The notes under the pieces are model-generated. The model did no database searches. It saw only the letters and a list, made by a program, of their open reading frames with translations, and was not told the origin of the DNA. The position numbers and the translations under genes are program-made. Shown here piece by piece: positions 1-45,525 of a DNA stretch of 64,000 nucleotides. The stretch comes from a virus. Each line of letters begins with the position of its first letter. Positions within the stretch are counted from its first letter, which is position 1. The stretch is taken from positions 1,808-65,807 of the IMG/VR virus record IMGVR_UViG_3300021399_000016. The stretch is one strand, 5' to 3'.

Positions 1-2060
1 GAATGATTATTAAGAATTTAAAGAAAGAGATCCTTCCTCATACAGTTGAATCGATCGGCTTAATTGACAAGGATCTTAGGAGAGCCTACGATCAGGGACT
101 TAAATTTGACGTTACGGATTTAAGGGGAGATATCCTTGACTTTGCTATGAATTCAACTAATTCCGCAAAGAAGTGTATTGATATTGTGTCAAAGATGAAG
201 TTTAAGTCTGATGAACCTACGGAGAACAAGGAAGCAGAAGACGATAGACCAATCGTGTTCTTTGACGTTGAGGTTTATAAGAATCTTTTCATTGTCTGCT
301 GGAAGTATCTTGGCGTTGATGATGTCGTTAAGATGATTAATCCGAAGATCGATGAAGTCGAGAATTTATTTAAGTTCCGGTTAGTTGGGTTTAACAACAG
401 GCGTTACGACAATCATATTCTCTGGGCTTATACGATGGGCTATAAGAACGAGGCGCTCTATGAGCTTTCACAGTCCATCATAAATAATGAACGGATTGGG
501 ACTTTCAGCGAAGCGTATAACTTAAGCTATACTGATATTTGGGATTACGCTTCAAATAAGCAGAGTCTTAAGAAGTGGGAGATCCAGCTTGGTATTACAC
601 ATATGGAGATGGGTATTCCGTGGGACGAGCCTGCTCCTGAGAATATGTGGAATGATATTGCTGAATACTGTGCTAACGATGTAAGAGCAACTGAGGCGGT
701 TTGGAATGCTACTAAGTCCGACTTTAAAGCTAGAGAGATTCTGGCTGACCTCGCTGGCATGACCGTGAACGACACAACAAATAAACTCACTCTGGCGATT
801 GTCTTTGGTAAAGAGAAGCATCCGAAACTTATCTATACGGATCTGTCTACTCTGTTCCCTGGCTATGAGTTTGTCACGGAGTATGTTACTGACGATAAGG
901 GTAAGCAGAAGATAGTTAAGAAGAATATGTACCGTGGTACTGATGTTGGATTTGGTGGTTATGTTTACGCTGAACCCGGTATGTATACGGATGTTGCTCT
1001 TCTTGATGTTGCTTCGATGCATCCGACGTCAATCATTATGCTTAATAAACTTGGCGAGTATACTGAGAACTATAAGAATCTTAGGGATGCTCGTATTTAT
1101 ATTAAGCATAGAGATTATGACAAGGTTAGGCATATGTTCGATGGAAAGCTCACAAAGTATCTTACGAGTGATAATGATGCCGATGAGCTTTCGAAGGCGT
1201 TAAAGCTTCCTATCAATTCGTTCTACGGTTTATCCAGTGCTGGTTTTGATAACCCGGCAAGAGACTGGAACGATGTGAACAACATCATTGCTCTTAGAGG
1301 AGCTCTCTTTATGAGAACACTTCAGGACGAACTTAAGGAACGTGGATATCCTGCTGTTCATTTTAAGACTGATAGCTGTAAGATTCCAAATGCATCTCCA
1401 GAGATTATTGAGTTTGTTATGGAGTTTGGTAGGAAGTATGGCTATGAGTTTGAACACGAGGCAACATATAAAAAGATGTGCCTTGTAAATGGTTCTACTT
1501 ATATTGCCAAATACGATGATAAAGGGATTCGGAATAAAGGTGGCAAGCACGCAAATGAATGGACTGCTACTGCTGCTCAGTTTCAGGTTCCTTATGTTTT
1601 CAAGACTCTCTTTAGTCATGAGAAGATTGAGTTTGAGGATCTCTGTGAGACGAAGAGCGTTCAGCGTGGAGCATTATATTTGGATTTCAATGAGAACCTT
1701 CCTGAAGGAGAGCATGACTATAGGTTTGTTGGCCGTGTTGGAAGATTCTGTCCGATCAAGAAAGGTTGCGGTGGCGCCGAACTTTTTAGATTTAATGAAG
1801 GGAAGTACTACGCTGCAACTGGAACTAAAGGCTTTAGATGGATGGATGCCGAAGTAATTAAGAATGAGAATCTCGACTATGAGAAAATCGTTGACAGAAC
1901 TTACTACGACATCCAGGTAGATGAAGCTGTTATTGATATTTCAAAGTATGGTGACTTCGAGTGGTTCGTATCTGATGATGACGGTCCTATGCCCGAAGAC
2001 TATAAGTTTGAAGAAGTAACCAATGACCCGTTAGAGGGTCTTATGAACAAACCTGAATAA
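1..2060 (+). CDS. C-terminal part of large replication protein: 3'-5' exonuclease plus family-B-like DNA polymerase (5'-truncated by window)
   Basis: Exo motifs FFDVEVY, GFNNRRYD, YCANDV; PolB motif A LLDVASMHPTSI, motif B KLPINSFYG, motif C variant HFKTDS; frame open from window start. Confidence 0.85.
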   Translation, partial: MIIKNLKKEILPHTVESIGLIDKDLRRAYDQGLKFDVTDLRGDILDFAMNSTNSAKKCIDIVSKMKFKSDEPTENKEAEDDRPIVFFDVEVYKNLFIVCWKYLGVDDVVKMINPKIDEVENLFKFRLVGFNNRRYDNHILWAYTMGYKNEALYELSQSIINNERIGTFSEAYNLSYTDIWDYASNKQSLKKWEIQLGITHMEMGIPWDEPAPENMWNDIAEYCANDVRATEAVWNATKSDFKAREILADLAGMTVNDTTNKLTLAIVFGKEKHPKLIYTDLSTLFPGYEFVTEYVTDDKGKQKIVKKNMYRGTDVGFGGYVYAEPGMYTDVALLDVASMHPTSIIMLNKLGEYTENYKNLRDARIYIKHRDYDKVRHMFDGKLTKYLTSDNDADELSKALKLPINSFYGLSSAGFDNPARDWNDVNNIIALRGALFMRTLQDELKERGYPAVHFKTDSCKIPNASPEIIEFVMEFGRKYGYEFEHEATYKKMCLVNGSTYIAKYDDKGIRNKGGKHANEWTATAAQFQVPYVFKTLFSHEKIEFEDLCETKSVQRGALYLDFNENLPEGEHDYRFVGRVGRFCPIKKGCGGAELFRFNEGKYYAATGTKGFRWMDAEVIKNENLDYEKIVDRTYYDIQVDEAVIDISKYGDFEWFVSDDDGPMPEDYKFEEVTNDPLEGLMNKPE

Positions 2061-2077
2061 GAAAAGGAGAACAAACC

Positions 2078-2557
2078 ATGAATAAACCGAACGGAAACAT
2101 TACTATCGAGAACGCAAGACTTATCTTCAGAGATTTCACTGGTGAAAAGAATAAATACAACAATGACAGAACGTTTGGGGTTGTGCTTGATCCTGAATTT
2201 GCAGATAAACTTGAAAACGATGGATGGAATGTTAAGAGGCTTACACCTAGAGAAGAAGGTGATGAGCCTCTTTGTTTTTTAACAGTAAAGGTTGTGTTCG
2301 GTAAAGTACCTCCGAAGATCGTACTCATCGTTGGGAATAAGAAAGCGCCAATTTCGGAAGACAACGTTGGAATGCTTGATTGGATTACCATTGAGAAGGC
2401 GGATCTCATTATTCGTCCTTACAACTACGACTTTGCTGGTCGCACCGGAACGAAGGCATACCTCAATTCTCTTTATATTACCAAGGACGTTGATTCTCTT
2501 GAAGCTAAATACGCCGATTTGGATGAAGAGGAGGCGATGCCGTTTGATGAGAATTAA
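2078..2557 (+). CDS. single-stranded DNA-binding protein (phage type)
   Basis: Between polymerase and helicase; ARLIFRDFTG...KAYLNSLY pattern; acidic tail ending MPFDEN; RBS AAGGAG. Confidence 0.7.
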   Translation: MNKPNGNITIENARLIFRDFTGEKNKYNNDRTFGVVLDPEFADKLENDGWNVKRLTPREEGDEPLCFLTVKVVFGKVPPKIVLIVGNKKAPISEDNVGMLDWITIEKADLIIRPYNYDFAGRTGTKAYLNSLYITKDVDSLEAKYADLDEEEAMPFDEN

Positions 2558-3752
2558 TGTGTCATTGTATCCTCATCAAATAGAAGCTGTCAATAAGATG
2601 CATAACGGCTGCATTCTTTGTGGCGCGGTTGGTACTGGTAAATCCAGAACTGCTTTGGCTTATTATGCATTGCAGTATGGATTTTCTATAAATCGTGCGA
2701 ACGAGACTGTTGGGGGAGATTATTGCTCCCCCGCACGTCTTTATATTATTACGACCGCAAAGAAAAGAGATAGCTTTGAATGGGAGGACGAATGTCTTAA
2801 TTTTTTAATTAATAAAGACATCATAACTATCGACAGTTGGAACAACATAAAGAAATATAGGAAAGTATACGGCGCATTCTTTATATTCGACGAACAGCGT
2901 GTCATTAGCTATGGCGCATGGACAAAAGCTTTCTTGGACATTGCTAGGAAGAATAAATGGATCATGCTATCGGCAACTCCTGGAGACACATGGTCTGATT
3001 ATATTCCCGTATTCATTGCCAATGGCTTCTATAGACACAAGTCTGAGTTTATAAATAGACATGTTATCTATAGTAGATTCTCTAAGTATCCAAAGATCGA
3101 TAAGTATATTGACACCGGGATACTTAACAAATATCGACATGCTGTTTTAGTAAACATGCCATTTAAGCGAAGGACAACGGCACATTATATTTCGATTCCA
3201 TGTGAGTATAACAAGGAACTGTATAAGAAAACTTGGAGAGATCGTTGGGATCCGTATAAGAATGAACCTGTTACCGATGCTGCAGGTTTGTGCTACTTAC
3301 TCAGGCACATAGTTAATTCCGATAAGTCACGTCTTGAGCCTATCAGTCATTTGATCGACAAGCATCAGAGACTAATTATATTTTATAACTATAATTATGA
3401 GCTTGATGCTTTGAGAGAGTACCTTGCAGGAATAGAAAATTTGGAGGTGAGAGAATGGAACGGACAGAAACATGAAGAAGTACCAGATTGTCCTAGATGG
3501 GTGTACCTAGTACAGTACAATGCTGGTGCTGAAGGTTGGAACTGTGTAACTACAGATGCTATTGTTTTTTATTCTCAGTCTTATAGCTATCGGATGACAG
3601 CGCAGGCTGCCGGTAGAATAGACAGACTGAACACGAAGTATGTAGATCTTTACTATTATATTTTCAGGTCCTTAGCTCCAATAGATCTTGCTATACAGCG
3701 TGCTCTAAAGTCAAAGAAGAATTTCAACGAGAAAGCCTTTGTCGGTAAATAA
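2547..3752 (+). CDS. SF2 (SNF2/DEAD-like) helicase
   Basis: Walker A GAVGTGKS, DEQR, LSATPG, QAAGRIDR; start moved from 2292 to ATG 2547 (GAGGAGG upstream). Confidence 0.85.
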   Translation: MRINVSLYPHQIEAVNKMHNGCILCGAVGTGKSRTALAYYALQYGFSINRANETVGGDYCSPARLYIITTAKKRDSFEWEDECLNFLINKDIITIDSWNNIKKYRKVYGAFFIFDEQRVISYGAWTKAFLDIARKNKWIMLSATPGDTWSDYIPVFIANGFYRHKSEFINRHVIYSRFSKYPKIDKYIDTGILNKYRHAVLVNMPFKRRTTAHYISIPCEYNKELYKKTWRDRWDPYKNEPVTDAAGLCYLLRHIVNSDKSRLEPISHLIDKHQRLIIFYNYNYELDALREYLAGIENLEVREWNGQKHEEVPDCPRWVYLVQYNAGAEGWNCVTTDAIVFYSQSYSYRMTAQAAGRIDRLNTKYVDLYYYIFRSLAPIDLAIQRALKSKKNFNEKAFVGK

Positions 3753-3770
3753 CAAATCCTATGTTTTTGC

Positions 3771-3795
3771 TCGTAGAAAAAACATATCCTATAAT
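3771..3795 (+). promoter_or_regulatory. phage promoter-like motif upstream of nuclease-nuclease-RNAP operon
   Basis: TCGTA GAAAAAA CA TAT C C TATAAT; matches the 22-copy consensus. Confidence 0.7.
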
Positions 3796-3858
3796 AGAAG
3801 GAGATAGAATATGACTTATATTTGTCTCCTATTTATTTTGCCTATTTGGAGACTTGAA

Positions 3859-4182
3859 ATGCGAGAGAGCGAATTTCAGTCCGACTTAAAGAAAGAGATC
3901 TCGGAACGATTTCCTGGATGCATCATTACAAAGAACGATGCCGCTTATATTCAGGGAATTCCGGATCTCTTAATTTTATATGAGGACAAGTGGGCTGCAC
4001 TGGAATGTAAAAAGAATGCGCGAGCCAAACATCGGCCGAATCAAGACTATTACGTTGAGAAAATGAACGAGATGTCATTCTCGGCATTTATATTTCCCGA
4101 GAACAAGGAGGAAGTCTTAAATGAAATGGAACGAGCATTCAAAACTACTGGAAGGCGCTCACGCACCATTCGGAGCAAGTAA
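3859..4182 (+). CDS. VRR-NUC / Holliday-junction-resolvase-like nuclease
   Basis: ESEFQ...GIPDLLIL...LECKK...PNQ pattern; alternative start 3811 lies inside a hairpin. Confidence 0.75.
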   Translation: MRESEFQSDLKKEISERFPGCIITKNDAAYIQGIPDLLILYEDKWAALECKKNARAKHRPNQDYYVEKMNEMSFSAFIFPENKEEVLNEMERAFKTTGRRSRTIRSK

Positions 4183-4684
4183 GTACTTCTGGCTTAACTA
4201 TGACAAGGAGAAAGCCCTTGCTTATTACAAGAGTCTTCTTGCAAAGAAAGCTGGAACTGAGTACCACGAGATTGCGAAGCAGTGCATTGACCATGGTATT
4301 CAGCTTAAAGGACGAAATACGTTAGCACGTTATGTGAACGATGCTATTGGATTCCGTATGCGTACTGAGCAGTTGCTCGTTTATTCAAAGTATTTCTTTG
4401 GTACTGCTGACGCTATTATATTTCAGGAAAAGGATAAGCTTCTTAGAATCCACGACTTGAAGACCGGCACCATCCCTGCTAAGCTCGACCAGTTACTCAT
4501 CTATGACGCGCTGTTCTGTCTTGAGTATCGGATTGATCCTTCAACGATTAATCATGAGCTTCGGATTTATCAGAATAATGAAATCCTTTCTGACAATCCT
4601 GATGCAGATCAGATCGCACCAATTATGGAAAAGATTCAATCTTTTAACCAGTTCATAGAAGAGTATGAAGAGGGCATAGTGTGA
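4121..4684 (+). CDS. PD-(D/E)xK (Cas4/RecB-like) exonuclease
   Basis: GTADAI...IHDLKTG...QLLIY. Confidence 0.7.
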   Translation: MKWNEHSKLLEGAHAPFGASKYFWLNYDKEKALAYYKSLLAKKAGTEYHEIAKQCIDHGIQLKGRNTLARYVNDAIGFRMRTEQLLVYSKYFFGTADAIIFQEKDKLLRIHDLKTGTIPAKLDQLLIYDALFCLEYRIDPSTINHELRIYQNNEILSDNPDADQIAPIMEKIQSFNQFIEEYEEGIV

Positions 4685-7563
4685 TGGACGAATTATATTT
4701 AGACGACTTAGATTTAAGTGAATTAATAATCGAACATTCTGGAGTCGCTCATGATGAGAATCCGCCAGGACGAGGTTCAGGTAGGTATGCGTATGGTTCT
4801 GGCGACAAACCAAACCAGAGAGAGCCGTTTTCTAATCCATACATTGAGAACATGAGAAAGAACGGATCTTCAGACAAAGAGATCTGTGATCTCATGAAGA
4901 AATCTGGCTTCACTGATGTTGATATTTACAAGAAGCTTCATAAGGCGGGCTGGAAAGACACAGAGATTGCTGAAGGTCTTGACATGAAGACAACTAAACT
5001 TCGTGCTAAGATCAGTATTGCAAAGTATGAACAGCAGGCCAATGATACAGCATCAGCAAGAGCAATGCACGAACAAGGTCTTAGCAACTCAGAGATTGGC
5101 AGAAGACTTGGAGTTTCGGAAGGAACAATCAGGAACTACCTTAATCCTGATATTTCACAGAAGAACGATATTCTTAAAACCACGGCCGATTCGCTTAAAG
5201 ATCTTGTCGCAGAAAAGAAATACATTGATATTGGTCCCGGCGCAGACTTAAGTCTTGGCGTTACTTCAACAAAGCTAGCAACAGCTGTAGCAATGCTTGA
5301 AGAAGAAGGTTACAAGAAGTTCTACGTTTACGAAGAACAGCTTGGCACTGGCAAGAAAACCACTATCACTGTGCTTGCACCTCCAGGCACTACCTATCCT
5401 GAACTAATGAACAATCGCGGTCAGATCAAGACCATCGATAATTATATTCAGGAAGGTGGTGAATTAAAGACTCGTCTCGGTATTGAACCACCAACCAGCG
5501 TTGATTCGTCAAGGATCCAGGTACGTTGGGCTGAAGATGGTGGTACAGACAGAGATGGAACTATAGAGATTAGACGAGGAGTCGAGGACTTGAGCCTTGG
5601 CTCCTCTTCTTATGCTCAGGTTCGTATTGCCGTGGATGGCACACATTATTTGAAAGGCATGGCCATCTATGGTAACGATGATGAGTTTGAACCAGGCAAG
5701 GACATTATATTTAATACCAACAAGAAAGAAGGCACACCTTTAATGCTTGATGATCCTGATGCTAAACAGGTATTCAAGCATTTAAAAGATGACCCCGACA
5801 ATCCCTTTGGCGCTTCTATAAAGATCAAAGATGGAAAGGTTGTTGGTCAGAGACACTACACTGGTGAGGATGGAAAAGATCACCTATCACCAGTCAACAT
5901 CATTAGAGAAGAAGGTGACTGGTCCGAATGGAGTAAGACACTTGCTTCTCAGATGCTGTCCAAACAGACGCCAGCATTAGCAACCAAACAGTTGAGGCTT
6001 GCTTATGAACAGAAGAAGGAAGAGTTTGAGGACTACATGTCTCTTACTAATCCAACTGTGAAGAAGAAGCTTCTTGAGGGCTTTGCTGAAGGTTGTGATG
6101 CAGCGGCAGTAAACTTGAAGGCGGCAGCTCTTCCTGGACAGCAGAACTATGTTATCTTACCTGTTCCTTCCATGAAGACAACTGAGATCTATGCACCTCG
6201 TTATGATAACGGTACTGAGTGTGTACTTATTCGTTACCCTCATGCTGGTCAGTTTGAGATCCCAAGACTAATTGTCAACAATAAGAATGCTGAAGCTAAG
6301 TCATTCATGTACAACGCAAAGGATGCCGTTGGTATTGCACCAAAGGTAGCCGAGCAGTTGTCTGGTGCAGACTTTGATGGTGATACTGTTCTTCTCATTC
6401 CTACCGCTAGACCTGATGGTACACGCATCTCTGATGTAAGAAACAAGAAGGCTATTCAGGAACTTGTGGACTTTAACCCCAAGATGTATGAGTATCCTGA
6501 TGGTGTCGAGCATAAGAAGATGAGCGACCACACTAAACAGGTTCAGATGGGTATGGTTTCGAACTTGATCACGGACATGACCATTGGTGGTGCATCACCA
6601 GAGGAGCTTGTGCGTGCAGTTAAGCACTCAATGGTGGTAATTGATGCACAGAAGCATGGTCTGAACTACAAGCAGTCAGAGAAAGACAATCGTATCGATG
6701 AGCTTAGACAGAAGTACCAGGCTAAAGAGAACGGCAAGGCAGGCGGTGCTAGTACTATCATTAGTAGGGCCTCTGCCGAACAAAGAATAGGGGTACGTAA
6801 AAGAAACTGGAAGCCCGATGCCGAAACAGGTGAGGTTACTTACAGAGAAACTCCTGAATACATTACTACAAGAAAAGTAATGCCTGATGGAACTGTCAAG
6901 GAAGAGACCAGGGAGCGTACTATAAAGACTACCCGGATGGCTTATGAAAAGGACGCCCGTAATCTAATGAGCGGCCCCAATCATGAAGGAATGCCAATCG
7001 AGAGGATCTACGCCAAGTATGCCAACGACATGAAGGCACTTGCAAACCAAGCACGTAAGGAAGCTCTGGATACCCCGCTTCTTCAAACCTCCCCCTCTGC
7101 TAAAAAGGTCTATGCTGCAGAAGTAGAGTCCTTGGAGAACAAGCTTAGGGAAGCCAAAAGTAACGCACCTAGAGAAAGACAGGCTCAGATACTAGCAAAT
7201 GAGTTCATGCGAGCTAAGAGAAAAGACGATCCTAATATGGATGCAGATCATCTCAAGAAAGCTAAGTCGTTGGCCCTTGCTAATGCAAGAGACATTGTTG
7301 GTGCTAAGAAGACAAAGATTGAGATAACAGACAAAGAATGGCAAGCTATTCAGTCTGGTGCTATTAGTGACAACAAATTACGTCAGATTCTTAACAATGC
7401 TGATGACAAAGCAATTAAACAGCTTGCTATGCCAAGAACAAACAACGAACTTAGCAATTCAAAACAAAGTTTAATTAAATCTATGAGTAGTTCAGGTTAT
7501 TCAATTGCCGAAATTGCTGAACGTTTAGACGTTTCTAGTTCGACAGTTAGCAAATACCTGTAA
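4681..7563 (+). CDS. putative single-subunit two-barrel RNA polymerase (YonO/cellular RdRP-like) with N- and C-terminal HTH domains
   Basis: DGTIEI, QVR..LKG, RYP, LSGADFDGD (6370-6384), GMVSNL, VIDAQKHG in the order seen in cellular RdRP/YonO; HTHs GLSNSEIGRRLGVSEGTIRNYL and GYSIAEIAERLDVSSSTVSKYL. Confidence 0.75.
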   Translation: MMDELYLDDLDLSELIIEHSGVAHDENPPGRGSGRYAYGSGDKPNQREPFSNPYIENMRKNGSSDKEICDLMKKSGFTDVDIYKKLHKAGWKDTEIAEGLDMKTTKLRAKISIAKYEQQANDTASARAMHEQGLSNSEIGRRLGVSEGTIRNYLNPDISQKNDILKTTADSLKDLVAEKKYIDIGPGADLSLGVTSTKLATAVAMLEEEGYKKFYVYEEQLGTGKKTTITVLAPPGTTYPELMNNRGQIKTIDNYIQEGGELKTRLGIEPPTSVDSSRIQVRWAEDGGTDRDGTIEIRRGVEDLSLGSSSYAQVRIAVDGTHYLKGMAIYGNDDEFEPGKDIIFNTNKKEGTPLMLDDPDAKQVFKHLKDDPDNPFGASIKIKDGKVVGQRHYTGEDGKDHLSPVNIIREEGDWSEWSKTLASQMLSKQTPALATKQLRLAYEQKKEEFEDYMSLTNPTVKKKLLEGFAEGCDAAAVNLKAAALPGQQNYVILPVPSMKTTEIYAPRYDNGTECVLIRYPHAGQFEIPRLIVNNKNAEAKSFMYNAKDAVGIAPKVAEQLSGADFDGDTVLLIPTARPDGTRISDVRNKKAIQELVDFNPKMYEYPDGVEHKKMSDHTKQVQMGMVSNLITDMTIGGASPEELVRAVKHSMVVIDAQKHGLNYKQSEKDNRIDELRQKYQAKENGKAGGASTIISRASAEQRIGVRKRNWKPDAETGEVTYRETPEYITTRKVMPDGTVKEETRERTIKTTRMAYEKDARNLMSGPNHEGMPIERIYAKYANDMKALANQARKEALDTPLLQTSPSAKKVYAAEVESLENKLREAKSNAPRERQAQILANEFMRAKRKDDPNMDADHLKKAKSLALANARDIVGAKKTKIEITDKEWQAIQSGAISDNKLRQILNNADDKAIKQLAMPRTNNELSNSKQSLIKSMSSSGYSIAEIAERLDVSSSTVSKYL

Positions 7564-7575
7564 GAAGGAGGACGT

Positions 7576-7815
7576 ATGGCTAAAGAGTATATGCTCACCA
7601 CGGTCGATAACCCATACGACCCCTTCACTCATTTCGATGAATGGCTTCGTTACGACATTGGAAAAGGCTACAACACATGCAATTACTTAGCAAGAGTTGT
7701 ACAAACATCCAATGAATTGAGTGATGAAATGAATGATCGTGCAATCAATGACGCAATTGATGAGATCTGTGAATACAATTGGCTTGGAATCTATAAGAAA
7801 GTAGCCAAGGACTAA
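7576..7815 (+). CDS. small hypothetical protein (MLTTVDNPYDPF)
   Basis: Strong RBS AAGGAGG directly after RNAP gene. Confidence 0.75.
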   Translation: MAKEYMLTTVDNPYDPFTHFDEWLRYDIGKGYNTCNYLARVVQTSNELSDEMNDRAINDAIDEICEYNWLGIYKKVAKD

Positions 7816-7873
7816 GCCGTTTGTATTCACATAGGGAGGGGGGGGGTCTTTACAAGTCCTCCCCTCTTTCGAT

Positions 7874-7882
7874 CGGCGGCCT
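7874..7882. other. candidate cos site (CGGCGGCCT)
   Basis: GC-rich 9-mer between G/C tracts in the non-coding gap before terminase-small/HNH genes; resembles recalled 9-nt overhangs of syntenic actinophages. Confidence 0.5.
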
Positions 7883-7919
7883 CTTGATATTTTCTCCGGG
7901 GGTGGTTTTTTGGAAATCG

Positions 7920-8032
7920 TTTTGGGAGGGCATAGGCTTAGGTGCCTTCTGGTTTGTGGTGATCCAGGTTCTCCTTTCCTCTGAGATATTCTTCTCAGGG
8001 TGGCTCTTGGCCGGGTCTATGTCCTGCCAAAA
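7920..8032 (+). ncRNA. long structured RNA/leader upstream of packaging genes
   Basis: TTTTGGGAGGGCATAGGCTTAGG pairs with CCGGGTCTATGTCCTGCCAAAA using several G-U pairs; inner hairpin CTGAGA/TCTCAG. Confidence 0.4.
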
Positions 8033-8065
8033 CTATTCCCAAAGTAGTTGAAAGGAGTGATGTTC

Positions 8066-8410
8066 ATGGCTAAAACCACGTCAAAAGGCCAGAGATCCTC
8101 AGGTAAGATACCAGCATTCTCCTCGGAGGAGCAGGAGAGTAGGTTGGTTGCTCTAGCTTGGGATCTTGCTGAGGAAAAATTAAGGGATGGATCTGCATCT
8201 AATCAGCTAATCTGTCAGCTTCTTAAGGCTGGTTCTGCGAAAGAGAAGCTTGAAAAGGATATTCTCCGGCAGCAGAAGGACCTTATGGAGGCTAAGACAG
8301 AGGCAATTAAGTCAGCTAAGCATATTGAGGAACTTTATGCTAATGCGCTTAAGGCAATGCAGTCATATTCTGGTCAGCCGGTTGAGGTAGATGATGAAGA
8401 GTTATTCTGA
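8066..8410 (+). CDS. probable terminase small subunit
   Basis: Helical protein, first gene after candidate cos, upstream of HNH and TerL; RBS AAAGGAG. Confidence 0.45.
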   Translation: MAKTTSKGQRSSGKIPAFSSEEQESRLVALAWDLAEEKLRDGSASNQLICQLLKAGSAKEKLEKDILRQQKDLMEAKTEAIKSAKHIEELYANALKAMQSYSGQPVEVDDEELF

Positions 8411-8816
8411 GATGATGACTCTTCCGACATTTGATGAGCGTTTTAAGTATTTAAAGCTCAACGGAAAGGTGGCAGCGGAGACATTTGGTTGTCACAGATA
8501 TTTGAACCAGGTTTTGTATAGATCTGGCGAGTGGAAGAGGTTTCGGAACAAGATCATCATTAGAGACGATGGTTGTGATCTAGCTGATAAGGATAGACCA
8601 GTCGAGGGGCAGAAGATTCTAATACACCATCTTAATCCTCTGACTATTGATGACGTTGTAAACCGTGATCCGAAGATATTCGATCCAGAGAATGTTGTCT
8701 GTGTTTCGTTTGATACGCATCAGGCGATCCATTACGGCGACGAGAGGTATTTAACATGTAATAAGTTTGCGGACAGGAAACCTAACGATACTTGTCCGTG
8801 GAGGAAGCTCACATGA
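8391..8816 (+). CDS. HNH endonuclease (packaging-associated)
   Basis: RDDGCD...IHHLNP...ENVVCVSFDTHQAIH. Confidence 0.8.
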   Translation: MMKSYSEMMTLPTFDERFKYLKLNGKVAAETFGCHRYLNQVLYRSGEWKRFRNKIIIRDDGCDLADKDRPVEGQKILIHHLNPLTIDDVVNRDPKIFDPENVVCVSFDTHQAIHYGDERYLTCNKFADRKPNDTCPWRKLT

Positions 8817-9178
8817 GTGTAATCACAGACAGCATTCTTCTATCAGTTAAGAAGATGCTAGGACTAGATCAGGACTACGACGTCTTCGATCCAGAGTTAA
8901 CTATCTACATTAACTCTGTATTTGGTACGTTACATCAGCTGGGTGTAGGACCGACCACTCAGTTTAGAATCTCAGACGATACAAGTACTTGGTCTGAGTT
9001 CACAACAAATGAAGTAGAAATCGAAGAAGTAAAGACATACGTTTATTTGCGGGTTCGACTTTTGTTTGACCAACCATCAAGTTCCTTTGTCCTTAGTTCA
9101 TTCCAGGAACAGATAAAAGAATTGGAATGGAGACTAAATGTAAAGTCTGATGAAATAAAGGGGACTGGCGATGAGTAA
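8813..9178 (+). CDS. head-tail connector-like protein
   Basis: SILLSVKKMLG...KTYVYLRVRLLFD...ELEWRL; position in head module. Confidence 0.5.
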   Translation: MSVITDSILLSVKKMLGLDQDYDVFDPELTIYINSVFGTLHQLGVGPTTQFRISDDTSTWSEFTTNEVEIEEVKTYVYLRVRLLFDQPSSSFVLSSFQEQIKELEWRLNVKSDEIKGTGDE

Positions 9179-9479
9179 GACAGAGATCATCATGACAATT
9201 ATTTGTGCAATCTTTTCTTCTGTTGGGTTCTGGACTTTTGTGAATAATGTTTATCAGAACATTAGGGAACGCGAGAGTGCAGAACGAAAAGCTCTTTTAG
9301 GGCTTCTTCATGAGAAGCTAGCTGAGAGAGCCTCAATGTTTATTAGTCGTGGAGCAATTACACGACAAGAGTATGAGGATTTCATAAAGTACATTTATGA
9401 TCCATACGTCGGTCTGGGAGGAAACGGAACTGGCGAGAAGCTTAAGAAAGAAGTAGATGATCTGAGACTAGTTAGTTAA
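9171..9479 (+). CDS. membrane protein, holin-like
   Basis: N-terminal TM segment; YDPYVGLGGNGTG motif. Confidence 0.5.
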   Translation: MSKTEIIMTIICAIFSSVGFWTFVNNVYQNIRERESAERKALLGLLHEKLAERASMFISRGAITRQEYEDFIKYIYDPYVGLGGNGTGEKLKKEVDDLRLVS

Positions 9480-9484
9480 CGGAG

Positions 9485-10777
9485 GTGATAAAAATGCAAG
9501 GTTTGATTTCGGATGAACTTTATCACCACGGTATTCTTGGAATGAAATGGGGCGTAAGGCGTTACCAGAATGAGGACGGTTCCCTCACAGATGCCGGGCG
9601 TAAACGTTATACAAAGCTTACTAACAGAGTTAATAAACTTCGCACGAAAGCTGAGAAATACGATAAGAAAGCTGCTAAGGCCGAGAGAAGTGCTCATCGT
9701 TTTTGGTTTAGAGATGCCGAGGCTGCTTACGCTAAATATTCTAAGTTTAAGTACAAAGCTGAAGCAGCGAGAACCAAGGCCGATAAAATCGAGAAGAAGG
9801 TTAACGAATTAGCTAGAAACACTAGCATGAGAGAAGTTAACGGTATTCCTGATAGTATCAGGCGTGGAGTCTCTATCGTCGATAAAGTAAAGAGTGGATT
9901 GGACGAACGTAATCGTCAGAAAAAGATCGCGGAAGCGGCAGAAAAGCGTAAGGCTACAATAGAGGCTAAGAAGGCACATGCGGCAGAGAAGGAAGAAGCT
10001 CTTAGAAGTGGAGACCCTAATAAGGTTTCAAAATTTCAAAATGAGCTTACTAACGATGAATTAAGAGCTGCAACCGATCGTATTCGATTAACTGAAACTC
10101 TTAGAAGCCAGAGCGAAGCTAGAGTTAAGACAGGACTAGATAAGGCTGAGGAAATTATGGGCAAAGTTTCTAAAGCTAAAGATATTGCTGAACGCGGAAT
10201 TAGTGCATGGAATACGGCTGCGAAGATCCATAACTCTTTTGTTAATGAAAAAGAGAAGTGGCCCGTGATCGATGGAAGCGGAAAGAAGGAAGACAGATCT
10301 GCTATTAAGAAGACCATTGAGAGCGGAGATCCCGAGCAGATTGCTAAACTTAAAGGAAAGCTTTCTGTAAGTGAGACTTCTGATGCTGTCAAGTCGATCA
10401 ACAACTGGAAGAATATTAATGAAAATGCCGATAAGAATAGGCAGGCTAGAGCTGATGCTGAGTACCAAAAGAAGGAATCCGCAAGAGAGGCGGAAAAGCA
10501 GAGAGATCTGAACAGAGAGAAAATGTTTAGTCAGCGTGACTCTTTCGAAAGGAAGGAAGCGTCTAGAAGAGAACAGGAATCATTTGATAAAGAATACGAA
10601 GATGGCGTAAAAGCTGCTAGAGAGGCATTCAAAAGATATAGAGAATCTTCTCGTTCAAATACTACTGTAGAACCGACTTCTAGATTCGATCCCGATGATA
10701 GAGCGACTCCTCAAATGAGAATCGGCCAAGAGATAACTAAACAGTTACTTCTTGAAATGAAGAAAGATAAAAAATGA
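9485..10777 (+). CDS. coiled-coil protein with HHGILGMKWGVRR N-terminal motif (possible internal virion protein)
   Basis: DELYHHGILGMKWGVRRYQNEDGSLT then K/E/A/R-rich helices. Confidence 0.65.
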   Translation: MIKMQGLISDELYHHGILGMKWGVRRYQNEDGSLTDAGRKRYTKLTNRVNKLRTKAEKYDKKAAKAERSAHRFWFRDAEAAYAKYSKFKYKAEAARTKADKIEKKVNELARNTSMREVNGIPDSIRRGVSIVDKVKSGLDERNRQKKIAEAAEKRKATIEAKKAHAAEKEEALRSGDPNKVSKFQNELTNDELRAATDRIRLTETLRSQSEARVKTGLDKAEEIMGKVSKAKDIAERGISAWNTAAKIHNSFVNEKEKWPVIDGSGKKEDRSAIKKTIESGDPEQIAKLKGKLSVSETSDAVKSINNWKNINENADKNRQARADAEYQKKESAREAEKQRDLNREKMFSQRDSFERKEASRREQESFDKEYEDGVKAAREAFKRYRESSRSNTTVEPTSRFDPDDRATPQMRIGQEITKQLLLEMKKDKK

Positions 10778-10786: not shown

Positions 10787-12529
10787 ATGCTATCAAACAC
10801 AGCTACTCCTTATTATTATGGTTTGTTTAGAGAATCGGTGATTAGAGGAGAGATTCCTGTTTGCAGAGAAATCTCTATGGAGATGAACCGGATCGATAAA
10901 CTGATTGATGACCCTGGAGTTTGGTATGATAGAGACCCTGTTGAAGGCTGGATTCGTTATTGCGAGAACGAACTGACACTTACAGACGGTGGCGATCTTC
11001 ACCTATTAGATACATTTAAGCTTTGGGGAGAGCAGGTTTTTGGCTGGTACTACTTTATCGAACGATCCGTATACGAACCGAACGAAGATGGTCATGGCGG
11101 TCACTACGTTCGTAAGCTTATAAAGAAGCGACTTATCAATTACCAGTATCTGATAATTGGTCGAGGCGCTTCTAAGTCTATGTACGCTTCCTGCATTCAT
11201 TCTTACTTCTTAAACGTCGACACTTCTACAACAAAGCAAGTCGCTACGGCTCCTACAATGAGTCAGGCTGATGAAACTCTCTATCCGATCAGAACTTCCA
11301 TCGTTCGTGCTCGCGGACCTCTTTTTCAGTTCTTAACTGAAGGCTCACTTCAAAATACGACAGGTTCCAGAGCTAATAGGCAGAAGTTAGCGTCGACTAA
11401 GAAGGGTATCGAGAACTTTCTAACTGGCTCTCTTCTTGAAGTTAGACCTATGTCCATCGATAAGCTTCAGGGTAGAAGAGATAAGGTTGCTTCTGTTGAC
11501 GAGTGGCTTTCTGGAACTATCAGAGAAAACCCGATAAACGCTTTAGCTCAGGGTGCAGCTAAGAATGATGACTGGCTTATCGTCGCGACATCTTCCGAGG
11601 GAACGGTAAGACACGGAATTGGTGATGATATTAAGATGGAGCTAATGGAGATTCTTAAAGGAGAGTATGAGAATCCCCACGTATCTATCTGGTATTACAA
11701 ACTTGACGACATAGAAGAGGTTGGTAATCCTTCTATGTGGAGAAAAGCCAATCCCAATCTCGGAAAGACTGTTACTTATGAAACCTATCAGCTTGAAGTT
11801 GAGAAAGCCGAGAGGGTTCCATCATCCAGGAACGAGATCCTGGCAAAAAGATTCGACATTCCCATGGAAGGTTACACTTTCTTCTTTACTTATGAAGAAA
11901 CACTTCCGCATAGAAGAAGATCTTTTAAGAGACTTCCTTGCGCTCTAGGCGCTGACCTTTCTAGGGGTGACGACTTTTGCGCATTCACATTTCTGTTTCC
12001 GTTATCTGACGGATCGTTTGGCGTTAAGGTTAGATCATACATCACATCCTATACACTCGATCAACTCCCAAGAGCAATGCGAGAAAAGTATAACGATTTC
12101 ATCAATGAAGGTACGCTCATAATTATGGAGGGTACCGTTCTTTCCATGATGGAAGTTTACGAAGATCTTGACGACCACATTGTTCGGATGGATTACGATG
12201 TGCGGACGTTTGGTTTTGACCCTTATAATGCCACAGAATTTGTGGAGCGCTGGTGCAGAGAAAATGGGGAATTTGGAGTTTGTAAAGTGATTCAGGGATC
12301 TAAAACGGAGTCTGTTCCTCTTGGAGAACTTAAGAAGTACGCCGAGCAGCGTATGCTTCTCTTTGATGAAGAGCTTATGACTTTCACTATGGGTAACTCT
12401 GTGGTCCTTGAAGATACGAACGGTAACCGTAAACTTTATAAGGAGCGCAGAGATCAGAAGATCGATAACGTGGCGGCCATGATGGACGCTTATGTTTCGT
12501 ATAAGCTGAATACTGATGCGTTTGAGTGA
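10787..12529 (+). CDS. terL: terminase large subunit
   Basis: IIGRGASKS Walker A, VDEW Walker B, GADLSRGDDF nuclease motif, FDPYNA, KIDNVAA. Confidence 0.92.
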   Translation: MLSNTATPYYYGLFRESVIRGEIPVCREISMEMNRIDKLIDDPGVWYDRDPVEGWIRYCENELTLTDGGDLHLLDTFKLWGEQVFGWYYFIERSVYEPNEDGHGGHYVRKLIKKRLINYQYLIIGRGASKSMYASCIHSYFLNVDTSTTKQVATAPTMSQADETLYPIRTSIVRARGPLFQFLTEGSLQNTTGSRANRQKLASTKKGIENFLTGSLLEVRPMSIDKLQGRRDKVASVDEWLSGTIRENPINALAQGAAKNDDWLIVATSSEGTVRHGIGDDIKMELMEILKGEYENPHVSIWYYKLDDIEEVGNPSMWRKANPNLGKTVTYETYQLEVEKAERVPSSRNEILAKRFDIPMEGYTFFFTYEETLPHRRRSFKRLPCALGADLSRGDDFCAFTFLFPLSDGSFGVKVRSYITSYTLDQLPRAMREKYNDFINEGTLIIMEGTVLSMMEVYEDLDDHIVRMDYDVRTFGFDPYNATEFVERWCRENGEFGVCKVIQGSKTESVPLGELKKYAEQRMLLFDEELMTFTMGNSVVLEDTNGNRKLYKERRDQKIDNVAAMMDAYVSYKLNTDAFE

Positions 12530-12533
12530 AGAC

Positions 12534-13448
12534 ATGAGAGATGATATTTATGTTGGTGCTCTTTTTTCTGAAGAATATTTAATGCACCATGGAATTAAGG
12601 GTCAGAAGTGGGGCGTTAAACATGGACCGCCATATCCTCTTGATTCTAGCGTATCTAAGCGAGTGAAAAGCGGTAAAGATATAAGAGTTGCTAGTGGTAA
12701 GGATAATAAAAAAGATCCGGATTTACATAATAAAAAAGGTAGCAATAGAGAAGCGTATAAAATGGCTCTTAATATTGCGCTTGATGTGGCTACGTTAAAT
12801 CCTATTTGGGCTGTTCAGGATGCTGTTAGATTAGGTCAATATGCGTCTTCAAAAGTGAAGGCTAAAAACATTGCTAAACGTCAGTCTTTCGAAGAAATCG
12901 ATAAGAAAACCGGATTCCATAAAAAGTCAAAAGAAATGACTATGGACGAAGATGTTAAAAACGTGAATCCTAATTTTCATAACTTCAACAGCAATACGAA
13001 GAATAACTGTATGCTTTGTACGGTTACTTATGATATGAGAAGAAGAGGATATGACGTTACTGCTGAATTAGCAGGAAAAGGCTATGACTATAATTCTGTT
13101 AAGCAATGGTATCCAAAAGCTAAGATAGTAGATGTACGAGGCGGAAATCAGTCAGTTGCTAGAACGGCAATGCTTGGCGATAAGCGGTTGATGGATAATA
13201 CTAAGAGCGAAATCGAGAAGCAGCCAAACGGAGCTAGAGGAAATCTTATGGTTCAATGGTCAAATTTTCAGGGCGGTCACTCAATGGCTTATGAAGTGAT
13301 TGACGGAAAGATGCACATATTCGACGGGCAGACAGGAACGCACTATACGAATCCAGATAAAATTCTTAGACAGTGCAGACAAGTTTCTTATGCGAGATTA
13401 GATAATATTGAACCTGATTACAAGAGGGTAAAGGAGTGTTGCAAATGA
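12534..13448 (+). CDS. HHG-motif protein with C-terminal papain-fold (glutamine-deamidase-like) toxin domain
   Basis: YLMHHGIKGQKWGV leader; NNCMLC...GGHSM...IFDGQTG Cys-His-Asp triad. Confidence 0.65.
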   Translation: MRDDIYVGALFSEEYLMHHGIKGQKWGVKHGPPYPLDSSVSKRVKSGKDIRVASGKDNKKDPDLHNKKGSNREAYKMALNIALDVATLNPIWAVQDAVRLGQYASSKVKAKNIAKRQSFEEIDKKTGFHKKSKEMTMDEDVKNVNPNFHNFNSNTKNNCMLCTVTYDMRRRGYDVTAELAGKGYDYNSVKQWYPKAKIVDVRGGNQSVARTAMLGDKRLMDNTKSEIEKQPNGARGNLMVQWSNFQGGHSMAYEVIDGKMHIFDGQTGTHYTNPDKILRQCRQVSYARLDNIEPDYKRVKECCK

Positions 13449-13711: not shown

Positions 13712-14980
13712 ATGCCAAAGTTTATGGAGCGTGTCCAGAATGCCTGGAACGCTTTTTTAAGTAGAAGCCCCACCGTTACTTATGATTATGGCGGTTTTGG
13801 CTACAGACCTGACAGAGTTAGGCTAAGCAGAAACAATGAAAGAACAATCGTAGCATCAATCTACAATAGAATCGCTTTGGATTGTGCAATGATTGACCTT
13901 CATCATGTAAATTGCGACGAAGACGGAAACTACAAAGAGATTAGAAAATCTGGACTCGAAAACTGTTTGACTACCAGCGCAAATCTGGATCAGACAGGTC
14001 GAGCTTTTATTATTGATGTGGTTATGTCTATGTTTGATGAAGGCTATGTTGCTGTGTTTCCAACAGATTGTTCTGATAATCCTTACTATACGGCTGACTA
14101 CGAGATCTTGAAGCTTAGAACTGGAAAGGTCATAAGTTGGTTTGCTGATAGGGTTAGGATTGATGTTTACAATGAGCGTCTTGGACGAAGAGAAGAAATC
14201 GTGGTTCCAAAGACTCATGTCGCGATTATTGAGAATCCTCTTTACGCGATCATGAATGAACCGAATGGAACTCTTCAGAGACTTATTAGGAAGCTAAGTC
14301 TCTTGGACTATGTGGACGAACAGACTAGTTCCGGAAAGCTCGACTTAATTATTCAGCTTCCTTACGTTATCAAGACGGAAGCCAGAAGGCAGCAGGCAGA
14401 AGAGCGTCGTAAAGACATTGAACGCCAGCTTTCTGGTTCTAAATACGGTATTGCTTATACTGATGGTACGGAGAGGATCACTCAGCTTAATCGTGCAGTA
14501 GAGAATAACCTCTGGGTGCAGGTAAAAGACTTGACAGCTATGCTCTACAACCAGTTGGGACTCACTGAGTCTATTCTTAATGGCACGGCTAAAGAGGAGG
14601 AAATGATCAACTACTATAACCGAACTGTCGACCCGATTCTTGCAGCAATCGCAGAGGAGATGCAACGAAAGTTTATTTCTCCAACTGCTAGGACTCAGGG
14701 TCAGGCAATTAAGTACTTTAGAGATCCGTTCCGTCTTATTCCGGTTAGCGCTATTGCGGAGATCGCAGATAAGCTTACTAGAAACGAGATTCTTAGCTCC
14801 AACGAGATCAGAACGAAGATCGGCTTTAGACCTTCTAGCGATCCGGCTGCTGATGAACTCCGTAACAGTAACCTTAATCGATCTGATAACGAGAAACCGG
14901 CAGAAGCGCCAGAAGCTAACAGAAAGGCTGCGACGCAGAAAGCTTTGAAGGAGAAAAATCAAAATGGCGAGAAAGTATGA
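13712..14980 (+). CDS. portal protein
   Basis: 422 aa between TerL and capsid; IYNRIALD...NEIRTKIG HK97-like portal pattern. Confidence 0.88.
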   Translation: MPKFMERVQNAWNAFLSRSPTVTYDYGGFGYRPDRVRLSRNNERTIVASIYNRIALDCAMIDLHHVNCDEDGNYKEIRKSGLENCLTTSANLDQTGRAFIIDVVMSMFDEGYVAVFPTDCSDNPYYTADYEILKLRTGKVISWFADRVRIDVYNERLGRREEIVVPKTHVAIIENPLYAIMNEPNGTLQRLIRKLSLLDYVDEQTSSGKLDLIIQLPYVIKTEARRQQAEERRKDIERQLSGSKYGIAYTDGTERITQLNRAVENNLWVQVKDLTAMLYNQLGLTESILNGTAKEEEMINYYNRTVDPILAAIAEEMQRKFISPTARTQGQAIKYFRDPFRLIPVSAIAEIADKLTRNEILSSNEIRTKIGFRPSSDPAADELRNSNLNRSDNEKPAEAPEANRKAATQKALKEKNQNGEKV

Positions 14981-16769
14981 CTTCGCAGGTTGGGCGACAA
15001 AGAACGATCTCCTCTGCACCGACGGACGGACGATCAGAAAAGACGCCTTTAAAGATTGCGATGGGATTACGGTTCCGCTTGTTTACCAGCATGATCATAA
15101 AGATCCTACAAACGTCCTTGGACACTGTCTCTTAGAGAACAGAGCCGAGGGCGTTTATTGTTACGGATATTTTAACGATTCTGAAAAGGCTAGACACGCT
15201 AAGGAGTCTCTTAAGAACAAGGATATTACTAGACTTTCTATTTATGCGAATCACCTTAAGCAGAACGCTGGAGACGTTCTTCACGGAATGATCAGAGAAG
15301 TAAGTCTTGTACTCACCGGAGCAAATCCGGGAGCGAAGATTGAGACTGTTCTCGGTCATGCTGAAGAATTTGACGAGGAGGCCGTAATCACCACAGGAGA
15401 GGAGTTAGTAACCGATATGGAAGACGAGAACATCGTTGTTCATGCAGACGAAGAGGCCGACTCTAAGCCGAAGGAGACAGAAGAGTCTGGTGATTCCGAT
15501 GAGACTATTGAAGATGTGTTTAACACTCTGAACGAGAAGCAGAAGAAAGCCGTTTATGCGCTTATTGGTCTTGCTATTCAGGACAAAGGCAAGAATGACG
15601 GCGAAGCAAAACATTCCGAAGATGAAAATGAAGGAGAAGAAGATATGAAGTACAACGCTTTTGAAGGTGGCGCTCCGAGAAAGACTACTATTTCTCACGA
15701 CGATTTTAAGGTAATCATGGCTGATGCCAAGAGATGCGGTTCCCTTAAGGAAGCGGTCCTTGCGCACATGGAAGATGAAGATGGTGTTCTTGCACATCTT
15801 GATCCTGAAGTTACTGAGGGTATGACCCTTTCCCAGGACAAGCAGAACTACATGGTGAACGATCCGGCTTTCCTGTTCCCGGATTATAAGTCTCTTAACA
15901 ATCCGCCCGAGTACATTAAGCGAGATACCGGATGGGTTTCTAAGGTTATGGGTAAGGTTGGACATACTCCGTTTGCTCGTATTAAGTCCGTGTTTGCCGA
16001 TATCACTGAAGACGAAGCAAGAGCAAAGGGTTACATGAAGACCAATCTTAAGAAAGACGAGGTCTTCAGCCTGCTTAAGAGAACCACCGATCCGCAGACC
16101 GTCTACAAGAGACAGAAGATGGACCGTGATGATATTATCGATATCACCGACTTTGATGTTGTTCGTTGGATCAAGGCTGAGATGAGAGAGATGCTTAATG
16201 AGGAAATCGCTCGTGCCATCCTCATCGGCGATGGTCGTCTCAACTCTTCCGACGATAAGATCTCCGAGGATCACATCCGTCCGGTTGTTTCCGATAAGCC
16301 GCTCTTCACTGTTAAGGTCGATGTTGAGGTTGCTGCTGACGCTAAGCCCTCTGATATCGCAGAAGAGTTCATCGATCAGGCTATCAGAGCTCGTAAGCAG
16401 TATAAGGGTTCTGGTAATCCGGATCTTTATACCACTGAGGACATGCTCACCGAGATGCTCCTTCTTAAGGACGGTATCGGTCACAAGCTTTACAAGACCG
16501 AGCAGGAGCTCTGCACTGCTCTTCGTGTGAATTCTATTATTACCGTTGAGGTCATGGAAGGCTTCAAGCTTGATAATAAGGATTTCCTTGGAGTTATTGT
16601 TAACCTTGCTGACTACAGAGTTGGTGCTGACAAGGGTGGCGCTCTTGAGCTGTTCGATGACTTCGATATTGACTACAACCAGTACAAGTACCTGCTTGAG
16701 ACTCGTATCTCTGGTGCTCTGGTGAAACCGTTCTCTGCGCTGTCCTTCACTGTTAAGAAGACGGCTTGA
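14964..16769 (+). CDS. prohead protease - scaffold - major capsid protein fusion
   Basis: Protease motifs VPLVYQHDH, LSIYA, EVSLVLTGANPGA; acidic linker; HK97-like capsid C-terminus (EEIARAILIGDG, ETRISGAL). Confidence 0.88.
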   Translation: MARKYDFAGWATKNDLLCTDGRTIRKDAFKDCDGITVPLVYQHDHKDPTNVLGHCLLENRAEGVYCYGYFNDSEKARHAKESLKNKDITRLSIYANHLKQNAGDVLHGMIREVSLVLTGANPGAKIETVLGHAEEFDEEAVITTGEELVTDMEDENIVVHADEEADSKPKETEESGDSDETIEDVFNTLNEKQKKAVYALIGLAIQDKGKNDGEAKHSEDENEGEEDMKYNAFEGGAPRKTTISHDDFKVIMADAKRCGSLKEAVLAHMEDEDGVLAHLDPEVTEGMTLSQDKQNYMVNDPAFLFPDYKSLNNPPEYIKRDTGWVSKVMGKVGHTPFARIKSVFADITEDEARAKGYMKTNLKKDEVFSLLKRTTDPQTVYKRQKMDRDDIIDITDFDVVRWIKAEMREMLNEEIARAILIGDGRLNSSDDKISEDHIRPVVSDKPLFTVKVDVEVAADAKPSDIAEEFIDQAIRARKQYKGSGNPDLYTTEDMLTEMLLLKDGIGHKLYKTEQELCTALRVNSIITVEVMEGFKLDNKDFLGVIVNLADYRVGADKGGALELFDDFDIDYNQYKYLLETRISGALVKPFSALSFTVKKTA

Positions 16770-39517: not shown

Positions 39518-39529
39518 GGAGGTATCAAA

Positions 39530-39709: not shown

Positions 39710-39712
39710 ACT

Positions 39713-40051: not shown

Positions 40052-40059
40052 CGCACTTC

Positions 40060-40381: not shown

Positions 40382-40470
40382 TTATTGGCTTATGAGCTTT
40401 CGGCGGTAGGTCGTAATTTTTTCAATTCGTATAATAGCAAATTAACTTTTTATTCGAAAGGAGAATAAGC

Positions 40471-40803: not shown

Positions 40804-40867
40804 AATCAGGGCTTTTTCTTTTTGCTCGTATATTTTTCAACTCCTTTAATGAAGGAGGTAAAATCAA

Positions 40868-45522: not shown

Positions 45523-45525
45523 GAA

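Follow-up and report, generated by a model that had tools for sequence, protein, structure and literature searches.

The window analysed here is a 64,000-nucleotide (nt) stretch of DNA, bases 1808-65807 of the 65,807-bp viral record IMGVR_UViG_3300021399_000016, which carries direct terminal repeats and is rated complete. Every long open reading frame (ORF) of the window lies on the plus strand. At its left end a DNA polymerase gene, cut by the window start, is followed by helicase, endonuclease-like and exonuclease-like genes, and then by the gene in question, P0001, which encodes a protein of 960 amino acids (aa) and whose start overlaps the stop of the preceding ORF (4121..4684). P0001 is the next-to-last gene before an element resembling a cos (cohesive-end) site and a block of HNH endonuclease, terminase and portal genes (the features are collected in the table). 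What is this protein, and how would it find its targets?

A sequence-only reading had proposed a single-subunit two-barrel RNA polymerase on the basis of a series of short motifs. All of them are present in the translation, in the claimed order: DGTIEI (aa 292-297), AQVRIAVDGTHYLKG (312-326), IRYP (517-520), LSGADFDGD (560-568), MGMVSNL (623-629) and HSMVVIDAQKHG (649-660), with DFDGD encoded exactly at nt 6370-6384 (aa 564-568). How well are they kept? In a family alignment of 101 members at 44-54% identity, the residues invariant in every relative are Q313, R315, K325, G326, R518, P520 and H521; S561, G562, A563, D564, D566, G567 and D568; and M623, G624, N628, L629, D655, K658 and H659. The three aspartates of DFDGD, the proposed metal ligands, are thus kept in 101 of 101 homologs. 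Position 292 is D in 99 sequences and E in two. PMC2919709 gives eight residues common to all two-barrel polymerases, which in QDE-1 are D709, R738, K743, R962, P964, D1007, D1009 and D1011. The eight catalytic positions assigned to them here by motif order and spacing, not by superposition (D/E292, R315, K325, R518, P520, D564, D566 and D568), are retained in all 101 relatives. Judged from the alignment, the conservation of the motifs is far above chance. Past the active site, two long predicted helices bear MGMVSNL and VIDAQKH.

Does the protein also have the fold that goes with these motifs? An AlphaFold2 model made with the family alignment as input has a mean predicted local distance difference test score (pLDDT) of 89.3 and a predicted template modelling score (pTM) of 0.83, and only residues 1-51 and 256-262 are poorly modelled. 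Superposed with VIA-align, the core matches QDE-1 (7y7s_A) with Z 15.1 and a root-mean-square deviation (rmsd) of 4.4 Å over 370 aligned residues (model 271-796, chain 681-1186), maize RDR2 (7w82) with Z 14.9 and a Thermus-phage gp64 RNA polymerase (8f72_B) with Z 12.6 over 359 residues. The largest subunits of RNA polymerases (Pol) I, II and III and of the African swine fever virus enzyme reach Z ~10.5, over roughly residues 478-689. Foldseek against the PDB places QDE-1 at the top (E 6.7e-8), then Thermus-phage P74 gp62 and ‘P32 gp64’ (~1e-5), then plant RDR2, and after it beta-prime and Rpb1-type subunits. A two-barrel polymerase fold, as the sequence-only reading expected, is therefore predicted confidently, with matches to QDE-1, RDR2 and phage gp64 over aa 271-800, as judged by superposition scores. 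Within the reach of computation, these results support the sequence-only reading, and we regard the protein as almost certainly an intact two-barrel polymerase. Searches of the PDB sequences, with the single protein or with the 101-sequence profile, return helix-turn-helix (HTH) proteins only, and so the link to solved polymerases is visible at the fold level only. In Pfam, the match to RdRP (PF05183) is sub-threshold (17.9 bits vs a cut-off of 23.8, E 1.3e-3, residues 555-684 only), and the same model matches 25 of 51 relatives at E ≤0.01 (best 1.5e-5). Given a score below the gathering cut-off, the protein is a distant relative of PF05183, not a member of it.

The model and the Pfam matches give the following domain order: a leader (1-51), helix pairs and an HTH (52-161), a probable winged helix (163-249), the two-barrel core (271-800), a helical region (~800-920) and a terminal HTH (924-960). 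Scanned separately with Pfam, residues 156-270 and 801-925 yielded no informative match. The N-terminal HTH matches Sigma70_r4_2 with 41.3 bits (cut-off 25.7) and GerE with 33.4 bits, its best stretch being 129-154, and Sigma70_r4 with 31.6 bits at 131-154 (cut-off 24.1). Numerous other HTH families score as high as Sigma70_r4, so these matches establish an HTH and not a sigma function. In structure, the same region resembles the DNA-binding domain of DeoR (7bhy_A, Z 7.3, rmsd 2.2 Å over 49 residues at 113-161). The C-terminal HTH matches HTH_38 (42.8 bits), HTH_23 (40.6 bits) and HTH_7 (37.1 bits), and both HTH_23 and Sigma70_r4_2 are matched by 50 of 51 family members. The stretch between the N-terminal HTH and the core was addressed with a separate model of residues 1-270 (pLDDT 83.9), compared with 48,161 PDB representatives. 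Winged-helix domains align to ~163-249 in nearly all of the 50 best rows, the best being TFIIIC tauB (8cli_A, Z 8.3, rmsd 2.6 Å, 84 aligned) and Stf76 (2mlg, Z 8.2). The tool itself classes Z values of this size as borderline, and so a winged helix at 163-249 is graded as probable. The sequence-only reading had described repeated HTH-like units at the N-terminus and one HTH at the C-terminus. HTHs above the Pfam gathering score are indeed found at ~124-155 and ~924-960; the ‘repeated units’ at 52-100 are instead short helix pairs which, scanned alone, give sub-threshold Pfam matches only (DUF7626, 25 bits vs a cut-off of 27). These helix pairs contain a 28-residue insert that is not in the other printed rows of alignment A3 (21 of 42 rows), apart from two with shorter inserts. 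This insert sets the window polymerase apart from its family, as does an identity of at most 54% to cluster representatives.

Table. Features at the polymerase locus, with positions in the window
Feature	Position	Strand	Basis or remark
Promoter-like 25-bp box heading the endonuclease-exonuclease-RNA polymerase operon	3771..3795	+	exact TCGTA-N7-CA-N5-TATAAT
Two nuclease genes	3811..4182 (endonuclease-like), 4121..4684 (exonuclease-like)	+	PHROG 93, PHROG 3953
Predicted single-chain two-barrel polymerase gene (P0001)	4681..7563	+	960 aa, GTG start
Conserved disordered N-terminal leader, aa 14-46	4720..4818	+	consensus L.HYG....SGRYPWGSGE.PYQ
Short helix pairs, aa 52-100	4834..4980	+	AlphaFold2 helices 53-60, 65-74, 79-88, 93-99
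N-terminal HTH, aa 113-161	5017..5163	+	Pfam and structural match
Winged-helix domain (probable), aa 163-249	5167..5427	+	separate N-terminal model, structure comparison
Two-barrel catalytic core (predicted), aa 271-800	5491..7080	+	structural superposition (VIA-align)
First-barrel motifs DG.I and QVR....KG (D292, R315, K325)	5554..5658	+	conservation; match to QDE-1 D709/R738/K743 inferred from motif order
IRYPH (R518, P520)	6229..6243	+	invariant, with H521; equivalence to Rpb1 R446/P448 inferred from motif order
Putative DFDGD metal-binding loop (D564, D566, D568)	6370..6384	+	three Asp and G567 invariant
Two long helices past the active site, aa 616-659	6526..6657	+	AlphaFold2 helices 616-635, 640-659
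C-terminal HTH, aa 924-960	7450..7560	+	Pfam
Small conserved gene, 79 aa	7576..7815	+	PHROG 4303, E 3.4e-34
cos-like element	7830..7915	+	G-rich inverted repeat, CATCGC..GGTCT-like sequence and CCCCGGGGG/T-run; conserved in relatives' gaps

To which family does the protein belong? The profile of PHROG 4291, which bears the name ‘RNA-dependent RNA polymerase’, covers it end to end (aa 31-960 to profile positions 19-905 of 909, E=0, 1102 bits). By tblastn, 250 phage records contain a homolog, full length in 249 of them and less than 60% identical in every case; by organism name these are Arthrobacter (95), Gordonia (55), Streptomyces (54), Lactococcus (13) and others. Among 1.84 billion cluster representatives searched, 1988 match at E ≤0.001 and 858 at E ≤1e-30, the best at 54% identity, and one 4.3-kb viral contig encodes a 79%-identical homolog. 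A megablast of window positions 4000-8500 against the phage collection gave no match. The family is thus very large, and most phage records mislabel its members as plain DNA-binding proteins. Indeed, the sequence-only reading was mostly right in guessing that an automated annotation would call the gene an HTH protein (35 of 40 listed records say HTH or DNA-binding, three ‘RNA-dependent RNA polymerase’ and two hypothetical), although PHROGs already names the family. The literature, of which that reading did not know, has been here before too. PMC2919709 (2010) assigns the protein of Lactococcus phage 1706 to a ‘YonO-like’ family, one of five that are distantly related and have the eight invariant residues. 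Later, bioRxiv 10.1101/842583 described the protein as a signature of an actinophage supercluster plus Lactococcus and Faecalibacterium phages, reported HHpred similarity to Pfam RdRP (95.68%), the DxDGD motif and an HTH at either end, and stated that it ‘could potentially have RNA polymerase activity’. By sequence comparison, P0001 adds a member to a family whose polymerase nature had been predicted in print before; what we add are the conserved box ahead of the nuclease-polymerase operon, the cos-like element beside the gene and a leader resembling a head-cargo tag. The annotation is also corrected for a signature gene of a phage lineage with both Firmicutes and Actinobacteria as hosts.

The closest described relative in the same family is orf75 of phage 1706, a full-length homolog (36% identity, 546 bits) which shares the leader, DFDGD and the terminal HTH with the window polymerase. 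The ‘putative RNA polymerase’ of Faecalibacterium phage FP_oengus and the ‘HTH domain protein’ of the actinophage supercluster also belong to PHROG 4291. Across the family the gene lies at the right end of the genome with one small gene behind it, as it very probably does in the window phage; 1706 differs in that its nuclease genes are followed by a structural gene and lysis genes before the polymerase gene is reached. Outside the family, QDE-1 and RDR2 are the best matches to the core, with 360-385 residues aligned across both barrels and a shared motif series (DG.I, Q.R..KG, R.P, DxDGD). They differ in their low identity (12-15%), in lacking HTH and winged-helix modules, in their other surrounding domains and in their eukaryotic silencing role. 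Among phage proteins, P23-45 gp64 (PDB 8f72, 8f5m) is a single-chain two-barrel DNA-dependent non-virion RNA polymerase and a structural match to the core of the window polymerase. According to bioRxiv 10.1101/2022.12.01.518664, it extends RNA on DNA and has its own promoter motif. It differs in being ~600 aa long, in a weaker structural match than that of QDE-1 and in that the part of its paper at hand mentions no fused HTH modules; a profile search of PDB sequences detects no sequence similarity between the two. YonO of phage SPbeta is another single-chain two-barrel polymerase, encoded just upstream of a late operon with terminase and portal genes. The SPbeta gene order (yonO, yonN, a gap, then yonK, terminase and portal) is similar to that of the window, and PMC5467207 reports that YonO transcribes the SPbeta late genes and states that how it finds promoters is unexplained, which leaves promoter search by single-chain two-barrel enzymes open.

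Could the window phage offer a clue to such a promoter search? Its genome carries a 25-bp box of the pattern TCGTA-N7-CA-N5-TATAAT, one copy of which heads the operon in which the nuclease genes are probably co-transcribed with P0001. The pattern occurs 15 times exactly and 25 times with at most two mismatches, vs 2.46 expected, and a weight matrix finds 20 copies scoring 15 bits or more, every one of them on the plus strand. These copies lie at 40.4-48.3 kb (40411-48282) and 60.0-60.9 kb (60045-60875), with one at 3771; the weight-matrix scan finds none in the 8-40 kb late block. Two sub-types can be told apart, a T-tract form (most copies) and an A-tract form (3771 and 60045). A purine directly follows the box in 20 of 20 copies, and in 18 of them a Shine-Dalgarno (SD) sequence and an ORF of 25 aa or longer come next, the two without such an ORF being 44071 and 45123. 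The SD begins 1-2 nt after the box at 3771 (2 nt) and 40826 and 7 nt after it at 44926; at the other boxes preceding an ORF it is 16-43 nt away. At 3771 and 40826, then, a start at the box end fits better than one 7 nt further on. TCGTA, 13 nt from TATAAT, is too close to it for a -35 element, and a scan for sigma-70-type sites shows no excess over chance, whether in the early region (19 vs 21.0 expected) or around the gene (7 vs 13.2). Hairpins followed by a T-run are enriched at 39500-49000 (30 vs 5.7 expected, nearly all on the plus strand), and since many of these sites abut the next box the early region is built of promoter-gene-terminator cassettes.

The box is also found in relatives. 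With a matrix made from 21 sites, 34 of the 52 loci that were not used for the matrix and have enough upstream sequence show a match to the A-tract variant at the same place, 500-1600 nt upstream of the polymerase gene. Over 982,520 nt of relatives' sequence there are 73 plus-strand and three minus-strand matches, 57 of which lie in that same interval, and in many relatives a hairpin and T-run directly follow the box. A box that ends at the presumed initiating purine and is conserved together with the polymerase fits a phage-polymerase promoter, and we lean slightly towards the view that the 25-bp boxes are the promoters of this polymerase. A search of the few non-coding gaps of the late block for shared 9-mers found no late-promoter candidate. 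Metatranscriptome run X20, which shares its sample with the probable source DNA, has contigs over 4670-6670 (depth ~1) and over 12.7-19.3 kb (depth up to ~6) and almost none over 1-4670; kept as contigs, of tiny depth and with possible DNA carry-over, they show neither transcription nor transcript ends, and the stretches lacking coverage are given no weight.

What, then, does the enzyme do? We think it most likely a single-chain, two-barrel, DNA-dependent RNA polymerase, which would transcribe phage genes without a host sigma factor and find its promoters with its own modules; the DNA template, the RNA product and promoter reading by the HTHs are all inferred. The known phage members with a two-barrel core, YonO and P23-45 gp64, use DNA templates, which we count in favour. 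Several points weigh against it. The nearest solved structures are RNA-silencing polymerases and the databases name the family ‘RNA-dependent RNA polymerase’, while literature searches found no activity measurement for any PHROG 4291-family member. The boxes contain a perfect TATAAT, so that their reader could instead be host sigma-A together with a phage activator; 17 of the 20 copies have a leader long enough for an ordinary start 7 nt past the box; and one box heads the polymerase's own operon, in which case, if the phage enzyme were the sole reader, the first molecules would have to come from elsewhere. Finally, hhalign of the 101-sequence family profile against YonO gave a probability of 1% and an irrelevant 20-column match, in a comparison with one YonO sequence where a YonO-family profile might reach further. 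Membership of the YonO family was rejected on this failed profile test, and PMC2919709 keeps the YonO and 1706 families separate.

Might the template be RNA? An enzyme that copies or amplifies RNA of the phage or its host, perhaps to produce double-stranded or antisense RNA, would account for QDE-1 (Z 15.1) and RDR2 (Z 14.9) being the best structural matches, for RdRP being the only polymerase Pfam matched (17.9 bits; 25 of 51 relatives at E ≤0.01) and for the name given by PHROG 4291 and some RefSeq records, and RNA amplification was raised as a possible role in PMC2919709. These names, however, were passed on by homology with no assay behind them, and QDE-1 itself also takes DNA templates (PMC9508822), as do the phage enzymes YonO, P23-45 gp64 and P23-45 gp96 (PMC5467207; bioRxiv 10.1101/2022.12.01.518664). 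With several conserved DNA-binding domains fused to the core and a phage genome of double-stranded DNA, we find an RNA template improbable. We hold a similarly low opinion of a role in replication, by primer making or by opening an origin through transcription, even though the gene closes the replication module: it follows the DNA polymerase, helicase, endonuclease and exonuclease genes, apparently in their operon, and bioRxiv 10.1101/842583 puts it in that module. The same paper reports a separate primase/polymerase gene in these phages, the structural and lysis genes of 1706 split the polymerase gene from the nucleases, and three to four sequence-reading DNA-binding domains exceed the needs of a primase. 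Less probable still is that the core is a relic and the protein a large HTH regulator of host RNA polymerase. This would suit the HTH label of 35 of the 40 listed GenBank records and boxes whose TATAAT the host enzyme could use, but the eight catalytic positions and ~40 further core residues are invariant across the 101 relatives, as expected of an enzyme that selection keeps catalytic. If the preferred reading as a DNA-dependent RNA polymerase is right, the built-in DNA-binding domains and the 20 clear candidate promoters of the same genome would make it simple to test whether the ancestral RNA polymerase core can recognise promoters without sigma.

Where in the genome does the gene lie, and which genes could it serve? 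A trio of a ~100-aa gene, a ~186-aa gene and the polymerase gene recurs in many of 80 related viral contigs, and an ORF of 72-106 aa (orf76 in 1706) starts within ~105 nt of the polymerase stop in all 28 loci with downstream sequence. Beyond the 79-aa gene of the window come a 250-nt non-coding stretch, a 114-aa gene, an HNH endonuclease and a protein tagged with DUF7211, and then the large terminase, a tagged toxin-like protein, the portal and a protease-capsid fusion. The cos-like element in the non-coding stretch is visible in most of 26 gap sequences of relatives, GGGAGGGG being present in 15 of them; the linear record of phage 1706 terminates in ...CATCGCCCTGTCT, and many related contigs end 300-450 nt past the polymerase gene. 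From the conserved element, the 1706 record end and the contig stops together, 7830-7915 is very probably a cos site and would mark the physical end of the genome in the window phage. A DNA contig of run X1 is broken at 7867/7879. As sole proof of a genome end this break was rejected, because a strain-variant bubble at 7879-9568 explains it too. With a cos site at 7830-7915, the polymerase operon would lie at the right end of the virion DNA and, after the ends are joined, directly upstream of the late block. Two target sets are therefore conceivable. The one we slightly favour is that of the rigid 25-bp boxes, which would make the polymerase read the early cassettes and its own operon; the other is the 32-kb late block just across the cos site, which it would transcribe as YonO does in SPbeta.

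Two observations concern the region around the cos-like element. About 100 nt past it, CTCCTTTC (about 7965-7980; 8048-8056) is exactly complementary to GAAAGGAG, the SD of the first late gene. It is present in 13 of the 26 related gap sequences and may act as an anti-SD controlling translation of that gene. Further on, one DNA contig of run X1 passes from 8804 to 9528 through 39 other letters, at a depth of 13 vs 42-50 for the main form; it is a strain variant without the two small genes at 8792-9479.

Could the polymerase reach the cell inside the phage particle? Virion RNA polymerases such as P23-45 gp96 and crAss-like phi14:2 gp66 are particle-borne two-barrel enzymes which, according to bioRxiv 10.1101/2022.12.01.518664 and bioRxiv 10.1101/2020.03.07.982082, are injected and read rigid early promoters. 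The window polymerase opens with a floppy leader (pLDDT ~40) in which H19, G21, S33, G34, G39 and G41 are invariant in the 101 sequences. When 101 polymerase leaders were compared locally with 50 DUF7211-type leaders, hhalign gave a probability of 84% and a pairwise E of 7.4e-6 over just 17 columns, the part concerned being the first half of the leader, acidic-x-L-x-H-[HY]-G; Pfam DUF7211 (PF23847) itself matched none of three polymerase leaders at E ≤10. In relatives the DUF7211 tag is found on many head-module proteins (50 matches, at most six per locus). In the window, the terminase-flanking proteins 9485-10777 and 12516-13448 (+) open with it (36.8 and 26.2 bits), and the second of these also has a sub-threshold match to a papain-fold glutamine-deamidase toxin (23.0 bits vs a cut-off of 24.1). 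The ORF at 14964-16769 (+) is a single 601-aa fusion of a prohead protease (Peptidase_S78, 22-136) and a capsid protein (347-589), with an acidic spacer in which five of six histidines are of the form hydrophobic-x-His, a number reached by 14 of 5000 shuffles; these are possible maturation cleavage sites. Literature searches found no virion-proteome study of the PHROG 4291 family and no paper naming DUF7211. The 1706 RefSeq record marks orf71, and not orf75, as a structural protein, which speaks against head cargo. Delivery in the virion is thus an idea we doubt more than we believe.

Joined together, these elements suggest a scheme that we offer tentatively and would not bet on. The polymerase would be loaded into the head through its floppy leader, which opens like the DUF7211 tag and has a hydrophobic-x-His site as in the capsid-precursor spacer. 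Injected with the DNA, it would start at the final purine of each box using its HTH and winged-helix modules, and early transcription could then do without the RNA polymerase of the host. Transcription from the box of its own operon would continue through the joined cos site and supply late gene expression, and a small paralog encoded elsewhere in the genome would tune the enzyme. This free-standing paralog is a 119-aa ORF at 59518-59877 (+) that resembles the two post-active-site helices (polymerase residues 605-684), with 34% identity over 80 aa and a pairwise E of 2e-12 (5e-9 in the genome search); it has no DFDGD and no Pfam match.

In phage 1706 the region ahead of the polymerase gene looks different. 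Its 450-nt gap (L084 5634-6083) holds three copies of CTATCACGAAAAAAC, two of them extended by TTCGGGAAAACTTCGGGATT, and a fourth, partial repeat, AAAAAACTTCGGGATT, lies near the end of the gap; the repeat is unlike the 25-bp box of the window.

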